A program made the position numbers and the translations under genes. Below, piece by piece: positions 28,902-38,969 of a stretch of DNA of 64,000 nucleotides (positions are counted from its first letter, which is position 1; each line of letters starts with the position of its first letter). The notes beneath the pieces are model-generated. The model did not search any database and was not told the DNA's origin. It saw only the letters and a program-made list of their open reading frames with translations. The DNA is from Oscillospiraceae bacterium (GTDB taxonomy: Bacteria; Bacillota; Clostridia; Oscillospirales; Oscillospiraceae), in the NCBI GenBank assembly GCA_045596005.1, contig JAZOBQ010000016.1:1783-65782 (forward strand). The letters run 5' to 3'.

Positions 28902-30275
28902 ATGCTGGAGATAAACTCCCTTGTCATGGAACACTACAAAATACTGGGTGTGGCCGGAAAGGGCGGAATGGGACGGGTATACCACGCGCTTGACATACGC
29001 GATGGAAGCCATTGGGCGATAAAGGAAGACCTTGATGCTGCCGGAGGCGATTTTCTGCGCGAAGAGGCGGAGCTTCTGGCGCAGCTATCTCATCCTGCTC
29101 TGCCTGTCAGCCGTGGGATTTGCAGCTGGCAGGGAACACAGTACATGACCATGCAGTTTATGTCGGGAGAAACTCTTGCGGGAATGTTGAAAAAGCAGGA
29201 AAAGTATCCGGAAACCCAGGTGCTGGACTGGTTTTTGCAAATATGCGACGTTCTGAAATATCTCCACAGCCGACCGAAACCTGTTGTCTACCGCGATCTC
29301 AAGCCGTCGAATATAATAATCGATGAAGAGAAACGGATAAGGATAATTGACTTCGGAATAGCCGAGGAATATACAAGACAAGACGGCGGGGAACAGATGC
29401 AAAAAGGCGGACTCACAAAAGGTTTCGCTGCGCCGGAGCAGTATAACCGCCGCTTCAAAGCCGATGTGCGTACCGACATCTACGCCCTTGGAGTAACGGT
29501 TCACTATTTGCTGACGGGCAAAAATCCCACAAAACCGCCGTATGAATTTCTCCCGGTCAGAAAGCTTGTGCCGGATGTCTCGCCGGCTATGGAGGAGATA
29601 GTTAAAAAATGCCTTCAGCCAAACCCGGATATGCGCTATGCCGGTGCGGACGAGCTGTATGACGAGCTGAAGAATATCGACAAAACCAACCGTCGGATGC
29701 GCAGAAAAAAAAGCATGCGAATCATAGCCGCGCTTGCAGTTATCGCCATTGTCGCGGCTGCGGTGTTCATTTTGGAGAGCAAGCTTGAAAGCGGCAGACA
29801 AAAGGAGATCGACGAGTATTATTCGCTTGTCGAGGCTTCGGAAGTCGCGGCTTTGAATGAGGATTTTATTCTTGCAGCGGAGAAAGCCGAAAAGGCGATA
29901 GCCATGCAGCCGAATGAGATCAGTGCCTATCTCGCGGCGGCGAACTGCCTCGTGCAGCAGGGAGATTTCGAAGCGTGCCGAAAATACGTGAGTGCGGAAA
30001 TTCTTGACCGTTTTCCCGAATGCTACGAAAACGAGGACTTCCTCGAGCTGATGGCACGGATGTATGACAGAAGCGGAGATGCAGAGAATGCGCTGTATTA
30101 TTATCTGAGCTTGTGTGAGATTAACGGCGCAAGAGCCGATCACTGGCTGGCACTGGCGGACTGCCAGATAAGACTCGGGAAAAACGAAGACGCGAAGACC
30201 AGCTTGAATAATTACCTGAACGCGGGAGGAGACGAGACCGTGTATCGGGAGCTGTCGGCCGGACTCGCCGGATAA
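28902..30275 (+). CDS. Hanks-type Ser/Thr protein kinase, membrane-anchored, extracellular TPR-like domain
   Basis: 457 aa. Contains 'GKGGMGRVY', 'AIKE', 'VVYRDLKPSNIII', 'DFGIAEE' and 'GFAAPEQ'. TM segment 'IIAALAVIAIVAAAVFIL' is followed by a helical repeat region. Confidence 0.9.
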   Translation: MLEINSLVMEHYKILGVAGKGGMGRVYHALDIRDGSHWAIKEDLDAAGGDFLREEAELLAQLSHPALPVSRGICSWQGTQYMTMQFMSGETLAGMLKKQEKYPETQVLDWFLQICDVLKYLHSRPKPVVYRDLKPSNIIIDEEKRIRIIDFGIAEEYTRQDGGEQMQKGGLTKGFAAPEQYNRRFKADVRTDIYALGVTVHYLLTGKNPTKPPYEFLPVRKLVPDVSPAMEEIVKKCLQPNPDMRYAGADELYDELKNIDKTNRRMRRKKSMRIIAALAVIAIVAAAVFILESKLESGRQKEIDEYYSLVEASEVAALNEDFILAAEKAEKAIAMQPNEISAYLAAANCLVQQGDFEACRKYVSAEILDRFPECYENEDFLELMARMYDRSGDAENALYYYLSLCEINGARADHWLALADCQIRLGKNEDAKTSLNNYLNAGGDETVYRELSAGLAG

Positions 30276-30318
30276 AACGGCGGGACGCCGATGCAGATAG
30301 GAAAGAAGGAGGCTAACC

Positions 30319-36795: not shown

Positions 36796-36839
36796 AACAC
36801 AGCCAAATTTCATCCATTAATTTGAGAGAGGGTGTTCGC

Positions 36840-38969
36840 ATGAACAATATGCCCGCATGGCCGGGCTGGGAAACGGTCAAAATGATAGGCCGTGGCAGCT
36901 TCGGTGCCGTATATGAGATCCAACGCGAGCAATTCGGCGAAATTGAAAAAGCGGCAATGAAGCTTATTTCAATACCACAGAATCCCGGCGATCTTCAGAC
37001 GATGATCGACAACGGCTATGACGAGGATAGCATCACCGCAACATTCAACGGACATCTTAAAGATATTGTTTCGGAATATATGAAGATGTCGAAACTAAAA
37101 GGCTGCGCGAACATCGTCAACTGTGAGAATGTGCGTTACATTCAGCATGATGACGGAGTGGGTTGGGATATCTTCATAAAAATGGAGCTTCTCACGCCGC
37201 TTACCAAGTCTCTGCCGGCAGAGATACCGGAAGAAACTGTGCTGAAAATAGCCAAAGATATGTGTCGGGCATTGATGCTTTGCGGCGAACACAACATTAT
37301 CCACAGGGATATCAAGCCTCAGAATATGTTTGTTTCTCCCCACGGCGATTACAAGCTCGGAGATTTTGGTGTGGCCAAAACCGTGGAGAAGACTATGGGC
37401 GGCACAAAGATCGGTACATATAACTACATGGCGCCTGAGGTTTACAACAACCAGCCCTACGGAAAGGCAGCAGACATCTATTCGCTCGGGCTTACGCTCT
37501 ACTGGCTGCTGAATAAGCGCCGTATGCCCTTTATGCCCCTGCCTCCCACGAAAATCAGCGCTGCGGACGAAGAAAAGGCAAGATATCGCCGCCTTACAGG
37601 CGAGACACTGCCTGCGCCAGCGAACGGAAGCGACGATCTTAAACGCATCGTGCTTAAAGCCTGCGCCTATGACCCAAGGAAGCGCTATTCCTCCGCGGAA
37701 GAGATGCTGCTTGACCTCGAAGCTGTGGGTAAAGGCACGGTCAGAAAAAAGGACAAGGACAAGCATAAGGAAAAGCCGGAGAAAAAGCAGAAAACCAAGA
37801 TGAGCAAGAAAAAAAGGCGGAATATTATCATCATCGTCTGCTGCATTCTTGCTGCATCGGCCATAGGAAACATCGGCGAGGAGATAGCTGCACGCAAACT
37901 CGCTGCGTCCAATGCAGGCACGCAGCCTGACTCTCAGCATCAAGCCGAGGCAGATCCGTGGCCGTCGCTCGCGCCGCTTCCGACCATTTATCCCATCGGC
38001 GAAACCGACGCTCCGGTACAGCCTACGCCCGAACCCCTTGGGCTGAGCGAGTACAGCGGCTCGCTGGCTGATTTCGCGAAAGTGGAATTTGAAAGAGCCT
38101 CCGCTTCCTCCGAGCTTCACCAAGGCGGCGTTTACTTTGTTGCCGACTATGCCATCGACGAGGAGAGCACCCGTCCCTGGATAGAGGGCGTAAACGGCAG
38201 CGGCGTCGGGGAAATTCTGACGCTTCATTTCCCAACAGAGCAAACTTTTGATATACTCTCGCTCAGACTTGGATATGCCAGAACTTCCGAACTGTATAAC
38301 AAAAATAACCGCCCCTGCAGACTGAACTTTATCTTCTCCGACGGCAGCAGCGTGGAATATACTTTTTCCGACATCAATGAGGTCCAGAATATCAAGTTCA
38401 ACAGGCCGATTACTACATTCTCGATAATGGTTGAGATACTTGCCGTTTACAGAGGCTCCGATGACGATACCTGCATTTACCAGATAGATGCATACAACTC
38501 CTCGGAAGCTGCGGCTCCGATTGTGCCCAGCGCAAAACCGCAGCTCTCTGTTTATGACCCCGATGACAGAGATATAATCATCGGACAGATAAGCGAGCTG
38601 TATGCCATAAATGCTCAGTACGGAGTGCATGACGAAGTCGTCAAAAACGGAGACTTCTCCTACTGCATCAAGGACGGATATGTTGCTGTTATCATCGACA
38701 AAAGAGAGCCTTACATCCAGTATTTCTACGATGAAGGCGAGATTCGATTTATCATCATAAAACCCGAGGAATACTCCGATGAAGCGATGAGACTCTTCCT
38801 CTACGATAATACCTTGTTCAGAGCTATGGATTACCAAAAGAACACCTATCTTATCGGCGATGGCAGCCTGTTTTTCAGAAGCATGCTGTCTTATGAAGAT
38901 GCTGCTGTGATCGAATACTCAGTGGCGGAAGATTTCGTCAACAATACTTATCCGGGACTTCTCTCGTAA
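36840..38969 (+). CDS. Hanks-type Ser/Thr protein kinase, membrane-anchored, extracellular beta-sandwich (discoidin-like) domain
   Basis: ORF 36780..38969 trimmed to ATG 36840 (GAGGG RBS). Contains 'GRGSFGAVY', 'IIHRDIKPQNMFV', 'DFGVAKT' and 'YMAPEV'. A Lys-rich juxtamembrane stretch and TM 'IIIIVCCILAASAIG' are followed by a Pro-rich linker and 'GVNGSGVGEILTLHF...LRLGYAR'. Confidence 0.9.
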   Translation: MNNMPAWPGWETVKMIGRGSFGAVYEIQREQFGEIEKAAMKLISIPQNPGDLQTMIDNGYDEDSITATFNGHLKDIVSEYMKMSKLKGCANIVNCENVRYIQHDDGVGWDIFIKMELLTPLTKSLPAEIPEETVLKIAKDMCRALMLCGEHNIIHRDIKPQNMFVSPHGDYKLGDFGVAKTVEKTMGGTKIGTYNYMAPEVYNNQPYGKAADIYSLGLTLYWLLNKRRMPFMPLPPTKISAADEEKARYRRLTGETLPAPANGSDDLKRIVLKACAYDPRKRYSSAEEMLLDLEAVGKGTVRKKDKDKHKEKPEKKQKTKMSKKKRRNIIIIVCCILAASAIGNIGEEIAARKLAASNAGTQPDSQHQAEADPWPSLAPLPTIYPIGETDAPVQPTPEPLGLSEYSGSLADFAKVEFERASASSELHQGGVYFVADYAIDEESTRPWIEGVNGSGVGEILTLHFPTEQTFDILSLRLGYARTSELYNKNNRPCRLNFIFSDGSSVEYTFSDINEVQNIKFNRPITTFSIMVEILAVYRGSDDDTCIYQIDAYNSSEAAAPIVPSAKPQLSVYDPDDRDIIIGQISELYAINAQYGVHDEVVKNGDFSYCIKDGYVAVIIDKREPYIQYFYDEGEIRFIIIKPEEYSDEAMRLFLYDNTLFRAMDYQKNTYLIGDGSLFFRSMLSYEDAAVIEYSVAEDFVNNTYPGLLS

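Follow-up and report, generated by a model that had tools for sequence, protein, structure and literature searches.

We analysed a window of 64,000 nucleotides (nt) from a metagenome-assembled genome (MAG) of an Oscillospiraceae bacterium (1.9 Mb, about 70% complete), and within it a seven-gene arm, g1 to g7, that occupies positions 28902-38969 of the window entirely on the + strand. The first gene, g1 (28902..30275), encodes a Hanks-type Ser/Thr kinase joined to a TPR domain (Pfam Pkinase 5.6e-40, TPR_19). It is followed by g2 (30319..31764), which encodes a surface protein of TPR, Ig-like and LRR modules (Pfam TPR, CHB_HEX_C/Fn3_assoc, LRR_4 1.4e-18), by g3 (31765..33870), which encodes a transmembrane (TM) protein with a helical domain and a vWA domain (Pfam VWA 7.9e-17), by g4 (33872..34444), which encodes a two-TM protein without a Pfam family that carries an acidic tail of threonine repeats, and by g5 (34451..36016), which encodes a TPR-Ig-LRR lipoprotein (Pfam TPR, LRR). 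The last two genes are g6 (36037..36795), for a cytoplasmic PP2C/PPM phosphatase (Pfam PP2C_2 1.7e-13, PP2C 1e-11), and g7 (36780..38969), for a second Hanks kinase with an NADase-type discoidin domain (Pfam Pkinase 9e-38, NADase_transloc F5/8 type C 6.8e-21). The open reading frame (ORF) listing and a Pfam scan placed all seven genes where a first-pass annotation of the same letters had put them and with the domains that it had named. The junctions, which depend on the starts chosen, measure 43, 30 (or 0), 1, 6, 20 and 44 nt (or a 16-nt overlap), and the annotation's range of 1-44 nt stands. Hydropathy likewise bore out its statement that every product except the PP2C has a signal anchor, a lipobox or a TM segment: g1 and g7 have one TM behind the kinase domain, g2 an N-terminal signal or anchor, g3 a TM hairpin, g4 two TMs and g5 the lipobox L-T-A-C, with none of these in g6. 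The arm is closed by a strong bidirectional intrinsic terminator hairpin (38995..39045, AAAACCCGCATCGATTGG...CCAATCGATGCGGGTTTGTTTT) that is common to g7 and the convergent precursor-peptide genes.

Strain variants from gut metagenomes differ from the window mostly at the third position of codons, where a hand count puts 32 of the 37 differences listed for g4, g5 and g7, and 12 of the 14 in g4. The frames, that of the g4 tail included, are therefore under purifying selection. One metatranscriptome gave short contigs on g3, g4 and g5 and loose-end reads in g6, which is weak evidence of expression.

Upstream of g1 lies a divergent, minus-strand arm that encodes an extracytoplasmic function (ECF)-type sigma factor, a complete NHLM/NHLP bacteriocin exporter, STAS and TIR-FHA-FHA proteins, an LRR lipoprotein of BspA type, another PP2C and a radical SAM enzyme. 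The first-pass annotation had treated g1-g7 as one arm beside this exporter, and synteny resolved them instead into a five-gene cassette and two resident island genes. Across the homologous loci that we compared (given L-numbers here; most contexts are short metagenomic contigs), BLAST found the order g1-g2-g3-g4-g5 in nine loci of nine, their proteins being 23-61% identical to those of the window, and the order recurred in four further loci (L102, L103, L104 and L112) by called genes and Pfam. g6 and g7 lie outside the conserved unit in other loci, and no g6 orthologue was found inside any other cassette among the loci compared by BLAST. By gene order, then, g1-g5 are a syntenic cassette separate from g6 and g7.

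The origin of the two remaining genes became apparent in L149, which carries the exporter arm with genes 52-84% identical to those of the window (those for sigma factor, exporter, STAS and BspA reach 70-84%) and has no g1-g5 cassette in the 20 kb read. There a g6 orthologue of 57% identity adjoins the sigma gene, and three tandem receptor kinases (14766-21479) each join a g7-type kinase domain (49-51% identity) through a TM to a g5-type Ig-LRR ectodomain (37-39% identity; E-values of 1e-72, 3e-58 and 3e-43). Two of these ectodomains span ~400 amino acids (aa), and the third, which is cut at the locus end, spans 213 aa. The content of L149 thus identifies g6 and g7 as residents of the TIR-FHA island and g1-g5 as an inserted module. 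The kinase-LRR fusion additionally provides Rosetta-stone evidence that internalin-like LRR proteins act with kinases as receptor ectodomains.

Seven distinct cassette contexts have readable flanks, and these comprise three TIR-FHA/NHLM islands (the window included), three type VII secretion loci and one Tad pilus locus. In L015 and L013/14 the cassette adjoins an orthologous TIR-FHA/STAS/NHLM-ABC/BspA/PP2C arm, which is convergent there instead of divergent. The type VII contexts are L012, L104/112 and L102/103/111. In L012 and L104/112 an FHA protein, an FHA-EssC ATPase, a LytTR protein and DUF4176 are encoded by the cassette, with EssC and WXG100 both present in L012 and L112. L104/112 additionally holds five WXG100 genes, a vWA-FHA gene and two PP2C genes. 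L102/103/111 holds three WXG100 genes, three extra kinases (two with C-type lectin domains) and a Zn-ribbon-FHA gene. The Tad pilus context, L007/8 from a Subdoligranulum MAG, encodes a DUF6382-FHA protein and a PP2C. An FHA gene therefore lies within about 15 kb of the cassette in seven of seven readable contexts, the types being TIR-FHA in the window, L015 and L013/14, DUF6382-FHA in L007/8, FHA and FHA-EssC in L012 and L112, and Zn-ribbon-FHA in L111. PP2C genes are near the cassette in five of the seven. A 238-aa LytTR protein is encoded directly 3′ of FHA-EssC in L012 (19807-20523) and in L112 (6140-6856), where it may provide a DNA-binding output.

Searches of 40 relatives and of 400 genomes each from the order and the class yielded neither the full cassette nor a full-length TIR-FHA gene outside the window genome, only reduced or distant variants. 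These sparse matches indicate that both are rare among species representatives. A reduced variant in species genomes of the same taxonomic order, L140, begins with an FHA gene, followed by genes for a kinase-TPR protein, a TPR-LRR protein, a TM-vWA protein and a small protein. Only the last three of these are visible in L141, which is cut at a contig end, and L144 is a further type VII-linked relative with WXG100. A genome scan with the g3 vWA alignment, which captures generic MIDAS patterns, returned only unrelated vWA proteins. g1-g5 are a rare, horizontally mobile receptor-kinase cassette, and we found no description of it in the literature searched.

These distributions bear on the annotation's proposal that a threonine-phosphorylation pathway here is linked to the exporter or the TIR-FHA protein, and on the independent distribution of the two arms, which it had named as grounds for abandoning that link. 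The cassette adjoins the exporter arm in three contexts, L015 and L013/14 as well as the window, and an FHA gene is always near. It also occurs without the exporter at type VII and Tad loci, and the exporter occurs without the cassette in L149. The two arms are therefore modular partners and not an obligate pair, so that comparative genomics supports the proposal in part: the link holds as an association and fails as a necessity.

Turning to the individual proteins, both kinases have the features of the Hanks type, namely the Gly loop, the catalytic Lys, the catalytic (H/Y)RD..N, DFG and APE. In g1 a TM at residues 274-292 is followed by a TPR domain that is predicted to be extracytoplasmic. 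The g1 motifs GKGGMG, YRDLKPSN, DFG and APE are kept in nearly all nine orthologues, with DFG and APE in nine of nine; the sole departure is L104, where the Gly loop reads GSGGMG and the catalytic-loop pattern is unmatched. In g7, whose start is possibly at 36840, a TM at 348-366 is followed by a Pro-rich linker, the NADase-type discoidin domain and an unassigned C-terminal domain. The discoidin-like domain of the first-pass annotation was recovered by Pfam and by NCBIfam alike (NADase_discoid, 100 bits against a cut-off of 38) and is a candidate glycan-binding input. The g7 kinase domain is 49-52% identical to those of extra kinases in L009 and L149 that bear other ectodomains. The g6 phosphatase has the PP2C/PPM motifs NEDN, DGMGG, SDGLSD and IDNTT, and both island PP2Cs, g6 and that of the exporter arm, retain the metal-binding Asp motifs.

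The two TPR-LRR proteins, g2 and g5, are paralogues with 22-26% similarity. Orthologues of g2 (38-54% identity) were present in all loci compared, and the lipobox Cys of g5 is invariant across nine orthologues. An AlphaFold2 model of g5, with a predicted local distance difference test (pLDDT) score of 89.6, consists of a TPR domain, an Ig-like beta-sandwich and an internalin-like LRR solenoid, and its top Foldseek matches are InlA, InlF and InlB.

The g3 protein probably begins at a conserved Met at 31795, as judged from an alignment of homologues. Its AlphaFold2 model (pLDDT 79.5) comprises the TM hairpin, an all-alpha domain of ~350 aa, a beta-sandwich with the vWA domain, and a C-terminal tail that is disordered yet conserved. 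The metal-ion-dependent adhesion site (MIDAS), which the annotation had called intact, is indeed complete (DRSGS at 476-480, T541 and D568) and is conserved in 12 of 13 homologues. The exception is P0014, from L013, where the N-terminal half of the vWA domain has been lost. Foldseek neighbours of the model are vWA folds, among them ArnB (rank 2), ITIH1, vWF-A3, CMG2 and BatB. Because the loop between the two TMs is strongly basic (KKCTxK), the positive-inside rule predicts that the large domain, the 640-aa helical-vWA part, is extracytoplasmic, and an outward g3 fits the signal peptide of g2, the lipobox of g5 and the TM-then-TPR order of g1. About 19 full-length g3 homologues were found among 5.8 billion proteins. 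The tail (window 33780-33870, residues ~672-701) carries Q.SD.FKQIGGTLGG plus one residue, a stretch that is strongly conserved though disordered in the model, and could be a docking peptide for a TPR domain or a processing signal.

The g4 family has a conserved two-TM core, and its outer loop (QPSYYT.QNYWY) and a juxtamembrane segment (WNKK..ILPNA.AA..WL.GSSLD) are conserved as well. With a g4 profile, 36 clusters were found at 90% identity, and the family has 75 representatives when clustered at 50%. The acidic tail, predicted to be cytoplasmic, varies in length and sequence, and repeated threonine motifs are always there, with the consensus [DE]-[KRE]-T-[EV]-[LIV]-L. Across 44 tails (representatives at 50% identity), [DE]x?Tx[ILVMF] was observed 143 times against 38.9 expected from shuffles, whereas the serine equivalent was at background (22 against 19 expected). 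Around threonine, acidic residues are enriched at -2, K/R at -1, E/V at +1 and aliphatic residues at +2/+3, whereas the profile around serine is flat. The motif type differs between contexts: the window has TVL, the type VII contexts and further members of the family have TEIL, TELL or TEVL, and the Tad locus has ETEL. FHA domains recognise phosphothreonine and not phosphoserine. Given this strictness, the threonine-specific motif is the pattern expected of a multivalent FHA dock, and the sequence of the g4 tail makes it a candidate multivalent phospho-acceptor and FHA dock. In L013 (3322-6553) the g4 homologue is 425 aa long, with a third TM and an extra extracytoplasmic domain of ~200 aa, and stands beside the MIDAS-less g3.

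In the window the candidate reader and output is the TIR-FHA-FHA protein (20015..21370, - strand; Pfam TIR_2 1.5e-18, FHA 2.1e-22), a member of a family of about 100 clusters. No other FHA protein is encoded near the kinases, and the whole assembly holds only two FHA genes, TIR-FHA being one, and four Pkinase matches, one of them under the family cut-off. Its first FHA domain retains GR...SxxH, then SSNGT. The linker before that domain (residues ~205-245) carries three conserved acidic-x-T-V/I motifs, ENTVY, EGTVI and DDKTVRI. Such linker motifs, shared with homologues, resemble those of the g4 tail and occur 47 times against 15.9 expected, and by analogy with Rad53/Chk2-type activation they could be intra- or intermolecular FHA ligands. 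The export machine itself lies at 21763..27735 (- strand) and consists of an HlyD-like adaptor, a C39-peptidase ABC protein and a second ABC protein, which exceed the curated NCBIfam cut-offs for an NHLM exporter (TIGR03796, 936 against 853 bits; TIGR03797, 731 against 709; TIGR03794, 172 against 156). The convergent precursors have Nif11-like leaders ending in GG, as in the gene at 39056-39418, whose leader ends ...DDVSGG.

Starting from the gene content, domains, catalytic motifs, synteny, FHA co-occurrence, threonine-specific tail motif and kinase-LRR fusion, we infer phosphorylation, complex formation, a ligand, a pairing of kinase with substrate, FHA binding and an effect on export. The TPR domain of g1, together with g2, g3 through its MIDAS, g5 and the outer loop of g4, would form an outer complex that binds a ligand or senses contact or damage. 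The activated g1 kinase would then phosphorylate the repeated [DE]-x-T-x-[LIV] motifs on the g4 tail, and the motifs of the TIR-FHA linker would perhaps be further kinase targets. Once phosphorylated, the tail would present a multivalent phosphothreonine platform at the membrane, to which the FHA domains of the neighbouring machine would be recruited or from which they would be released. In the window genome the reader would be the TIR-FHA-FHA protein of the NHLM export operon, and as output the pathway would control TIR-FHA and thereby the export or production of bacteriocin. g6 and the PP2C of the exporter arm would reset the switch. Accessory kinases would add glycan-binding inputs, through the discoidin domain in the window and C-type lectin or PASTA domains at other loci, and LRR inputs in L149.

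We consider it reasonably probable, on the strength of these genes, that the arm is a composite threonine-phosphorylation signalling system in which a modular surface sensor feeds FHA-bearing export machines. For the narrower proposition that it gates the NHLM exporter directly and post-translationally, the same genes leave us leaning slightly to the negative. We would also put forward, tentatively and with more doubt than conviction, that g1-g5 are an undescribed portable split receptor-kinase of gut Firmicutes, which would sense a neighbouring cell, a surface glycan or protein, or envelope damage, and whose phosphothreonine array on g4 would recruit whichever FHA machine is adjacent, be it TIR-FHA and its exporter, a type VII ATPase or a Tad pilus.

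Several points weigh against the signalling reading. The orientation of g3 follows from the positive-inside rule only, and the best structural neighbours of its model include cytoplasmic vWA proteins (ArnB, 4fx5). The g4 motif could serve otherwise, for instance as an acidic amphipathic interaction motif, and its +3 residue is not uniform, being L in many tails and D, S, T or R in the TVL-type repeats of the window. The second FHA domain of TIR-FHA and several FHA domains at other loci depart from the canonical phosphothreonine-binding residues. The 20 kb read of the L149 exporter arm contains no g4, and g4 therefore cannot be the sole dock for TIR-FHA. The sample is also limited, since about 12 of the ~75 g4-family representatives were inspected, and L009/10 and L011, which are cut at contig ends, were left out of the flank counts.

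The alternative that survives best is a transcriptional output, in which the target of the kinases and PP2Cs is the STAS protein, or else a small protein of anti-sigma type, and a partner switch frees the ECF-type sigma factor to turn on the precursor and exporter genes, with LytTR acting in type VII loci. The island does hold the parts for such a switch: a sigma-70/ECF gene (27728-28408) and a STAS gene (21386-21751), both from the Pfam/NCBIfam scan, and two PP2Cs, with no GHKL anti-sigma kinase seen. LytTR genes follow EssC in L012 and L112, and a homologue of a 64-aa ORF stands at the same site by the sigma gene in L149. However, a partner switch leaves the constant presence of FHA and the threonine-repeat tail of g4 unexplained, the cassette occurs at Tad and type VII loci without a sigma or STAS gene, and phosphorylation by Hanks kinases is not established for this family of STAS proteins. 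The transcriptional output is plausible, and transcriptional and post-translational outputs are not mutually exclusive; as the principal role of the arm, we judge it unlikely. The ORF in question (28361-28555, + strand; segment LSLEELDFIAAAG) has a 59-aa homologue in L149 (2829-3008, - strand) at the same position, divergent from the sigma gene, whereas the g1 orthologues of other loci have nothing comparable upstream. The ORF therefore belongs to the sigma/exporter island and was rejected as a cassette member; its product is possibly an anti-sigma or regulatory peptide.

If the surface proteins were instead adhesins for the adjacent machine, the LRRs and the integrin-like vWA domain would, for instance, hold target cells for contact-dependent type VII killing or anchor the pilus, and the kinase would give minor feedback. 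The internalin likeness of the g5 model would suit this role, as would the proximity of the g3 vWA domain to the extracellular ligand-binding vWA domains of CLCA1, CMG2 and mussel byssus PTMP1 and the association of the cassette with contact-dependent systems, type VII secretion and Tad. Against this, the kinase is the first and most conserved gene of the cassette, with catalytic motifs intact everywhere read save L104, an exporter of a diffusible bacteriocin has no evident need of an adhesin, and the fusion of an LRR ectodomain to a kinase in L149 is a receptor architecture, all of which makes an adhesive role very unlikely in our estimation.

Least probable of all is an anti-phage or abortive-infection role, in which the surface complex senses adsorption or envelope damage and the kinase activates a TIR NADase through FHA to arrest the cell: although in PADLOC the kinase domains score best against the defence kinase models mad6 and PD-T4-6, the TIR domain weakly matches ThsB-like models and the exporter-arm PP2C matches the candidate PDC-M21C, although TerY-P-like modules have been reported as defence systems (PMC10542128), and although phage-triggered, kinase-dependent type VII activation is known in Enterococcus from work cited in PMC11217815, the PADLOC matches reflect generic kinase-domain similarity, g2-g6 have no defence-model match, what is conserved nearby is machinery for secretion or export, with bacteriocin precursors, and not restriction or other defence genes, and the TIR-FHA gene is inside the exporter operon. 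Membership in a known defence system was rejected on the same ground, that PADLOC detects kinase-domain similarity only.

For the signalling reading, the closest working analogue is the threonine-phosphorylation pathway of the T6SS (type VI secretion system), TagQ/TagR/TagST-PpkA-PppA-Fha1 of Pseudomonas aeruginosa (PMC13713981), and the resemblance is mechanistic only. In both, the TM Hanks kinase bears an extracytoplasmic domain and is accompanied by a lipoprotein and by a co-sensor that is soluble and extracytoplasmic. Both also have a PP2C as antagonist and an FHA protein as reader, and the machine under control, in the window by proposal, serves antagonism or export. In Agrobacterium the phospho-acceptor of PpkA is a membrane protein, TssL, and once phosphorylated it binds Fha (PMC3953482), as is proposed for g4. 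Unlike those hosts, ours is a monoderm member of the Clostridia without a T6SS, and none of the genes of the window scanned with Pfam was a T6SS gene (TssA-M, Hcp, VgrG). The sensors belong to unrelated families (TPR, internalin-like LRR and a separate TM-vWA), the reader would be TIR-FHA-FHA, or in relatives FHA-EssC or DUF6382-FHA, the proposed acceptor has many threonine motifs and not one site, and the output would be an ABC bacteriocin exporter. The FHA region of TIR-FHA scored 60.6 bits against the TagH model, far under the cut-off of 120.

Among described systems, the nearest relatives are components of the type VII secretion systems (T7SS) T7SSc-T7SSj, namely their kinases, PPM phosphatases and FHA proteins (Garrett, Higginson and Palmer 2024, PMC11217815). 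That survey reports a TPR-bearing TM kinase, TsjD, a cytoplasmic vWA protein, TscE, and small TM proteins with unstructured tails, and could only note that kinase, phosphatase and FHA genes are encoded nearby (PMC11217815). The likeness extends to the helical ectodomains of the TM kinases, to phosphatases of the PPM family, to DUF6382-FHA proteins, to small TM proteins whose cytoplasmic tails are unstructured and to FHA-bearing EssC-type ATPases with intact phosphothreonine sites, and cassette relatives lie inside such loci (L012, L112, L111 and L144). The TPR-LRR proteins, the TM-vWA protein and the g4 family are, in contrast, absent from the description in PMC11217815, in whose text a search met neither 'leucine-rich' nor 'TPR', and the partner in the window is an NHLM exporter. 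Of T7SS hallmarks, no FtsK_SpoIIIE match occurred among the scanned genes of the window, and no WXG100 match occurred in the 70%-complete, 1.9-Mb assembly.

The first-pass annotation had compared the arm with the vWA, PP2C and kinase triads noted in comparative genomics of the Ter system, and this holds as a loose analogy. The TerY-P triad, as outlined in PMC10542128 after Anantharaman, Iyer and Aravind 2012, consists of a soluble cytoplasmic vWA protein, a PP2C and a kinase that ends in a zinc ribbon or OB fold; like g1-g7 it encodes vWA, PP2C and Hanks kinase together in a predicted phosphorylation switch. Compared with that outline, the vWA protein g3 is anchored by a TM hairpin, with an outward orientation by prediction, the g1 kinase has a TM and TPR and g7 a TM and a discoidin domain, and the PP2C is not a conserved cassette member. 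With no soluble vWA protein predicted, no kinase zinc ribbon or OB fold, and the PP2C absent from other cassettes, membership in TerY-P as described there was rejected.

A further comparison is with the archaellum network of Sulfolobus and its phospho-switch of ArnA (Zn-ribbon-FHA) and ArnB (vWA) (PMC6509490, PMC12852372). ArnB resembles g3 in that a C-terminal, disordered tail comes after a vWA domain and a beta-sandwich. Both systems have FHA, vWA, kinase and phosphatase proteins that regulate, or in the window would regulate, a surface machine, and among related loci L112, L111 and L144 have genes of vWA-FHA or Zn-ribbon-FHA type. ArnB, however, is cytoplasmic and its own tail is the phospho-acceptor, whereas g3 is membrane-anchored and probably outside and the threonine-repeat tail is on g4. 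The L149 proteins, with an internalin-like ectodomain joined through a TM to a Hanks kinase, recall LRR receptor kinases, whereas the LRR modules of the window are separate proteins, as in a split receptor, and the likeness to plant or animal receptor kinases is architectural only. Membership in the Bat/MoxR-vWA group was rejected: the BatB match is at the level of the fold, the NCBIfam BatA model reaches 33 bits where its cut-off is 380, and neither MoxR nor DUF58 was found in the scan of the window genes.

The control of export machines through phosphothreonine is already known in kind, and the portable receptor module, which comes with a clear candidate phospho-acceptor, is undescribed. If the proposed scheme is true, g1-g5 would be a monoderm counterpart of the TagQR-PpkA-Fha1 retaliation sensor of the T6SS, a plug-in trigger for several antagonism systems, and one sensor logic would tie the sensing of contact or damage to those systems in rumen and gut communities. 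For the question of when Gram-positive gut bacteria fire type VII secretion or release bacteriocins, the cassette offers concrete parts, namely a defined receptor set and a candidate phospho-acceptor with a clear threonine motif. It also offers natural module swaps, one sensor being found next to three kinds of machine and one exporter next to two kinds of sensor. The g4 tail and its FHA partner would make a simple system for studies of bacterial phosphothreonine signalling.

The remaining features lie elsewhere in the island and window. The second PP2C, that of the exporter arm, is encoded at 17844..18560 (- strand; Pfam PP2C_2 1.7e-14) and has orthologues in L013, L015 and L149. At 12056-15703 (- strand), the ORF calls include a 1215-aa frame of odd hydrophobic composition with no Pfam or NCBIfam match, which may shadow a gene in another frame or on the other strand. 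The whole island (window 20001-40000) has strain variants of 95-99% identity in gut metagenomes, sheep included (runs X1, X2, X6 and X13). It follows from these near-identical variants in several gut metagenomes that the host is a ruminant or gut commensal and that the island is stable across its strains.

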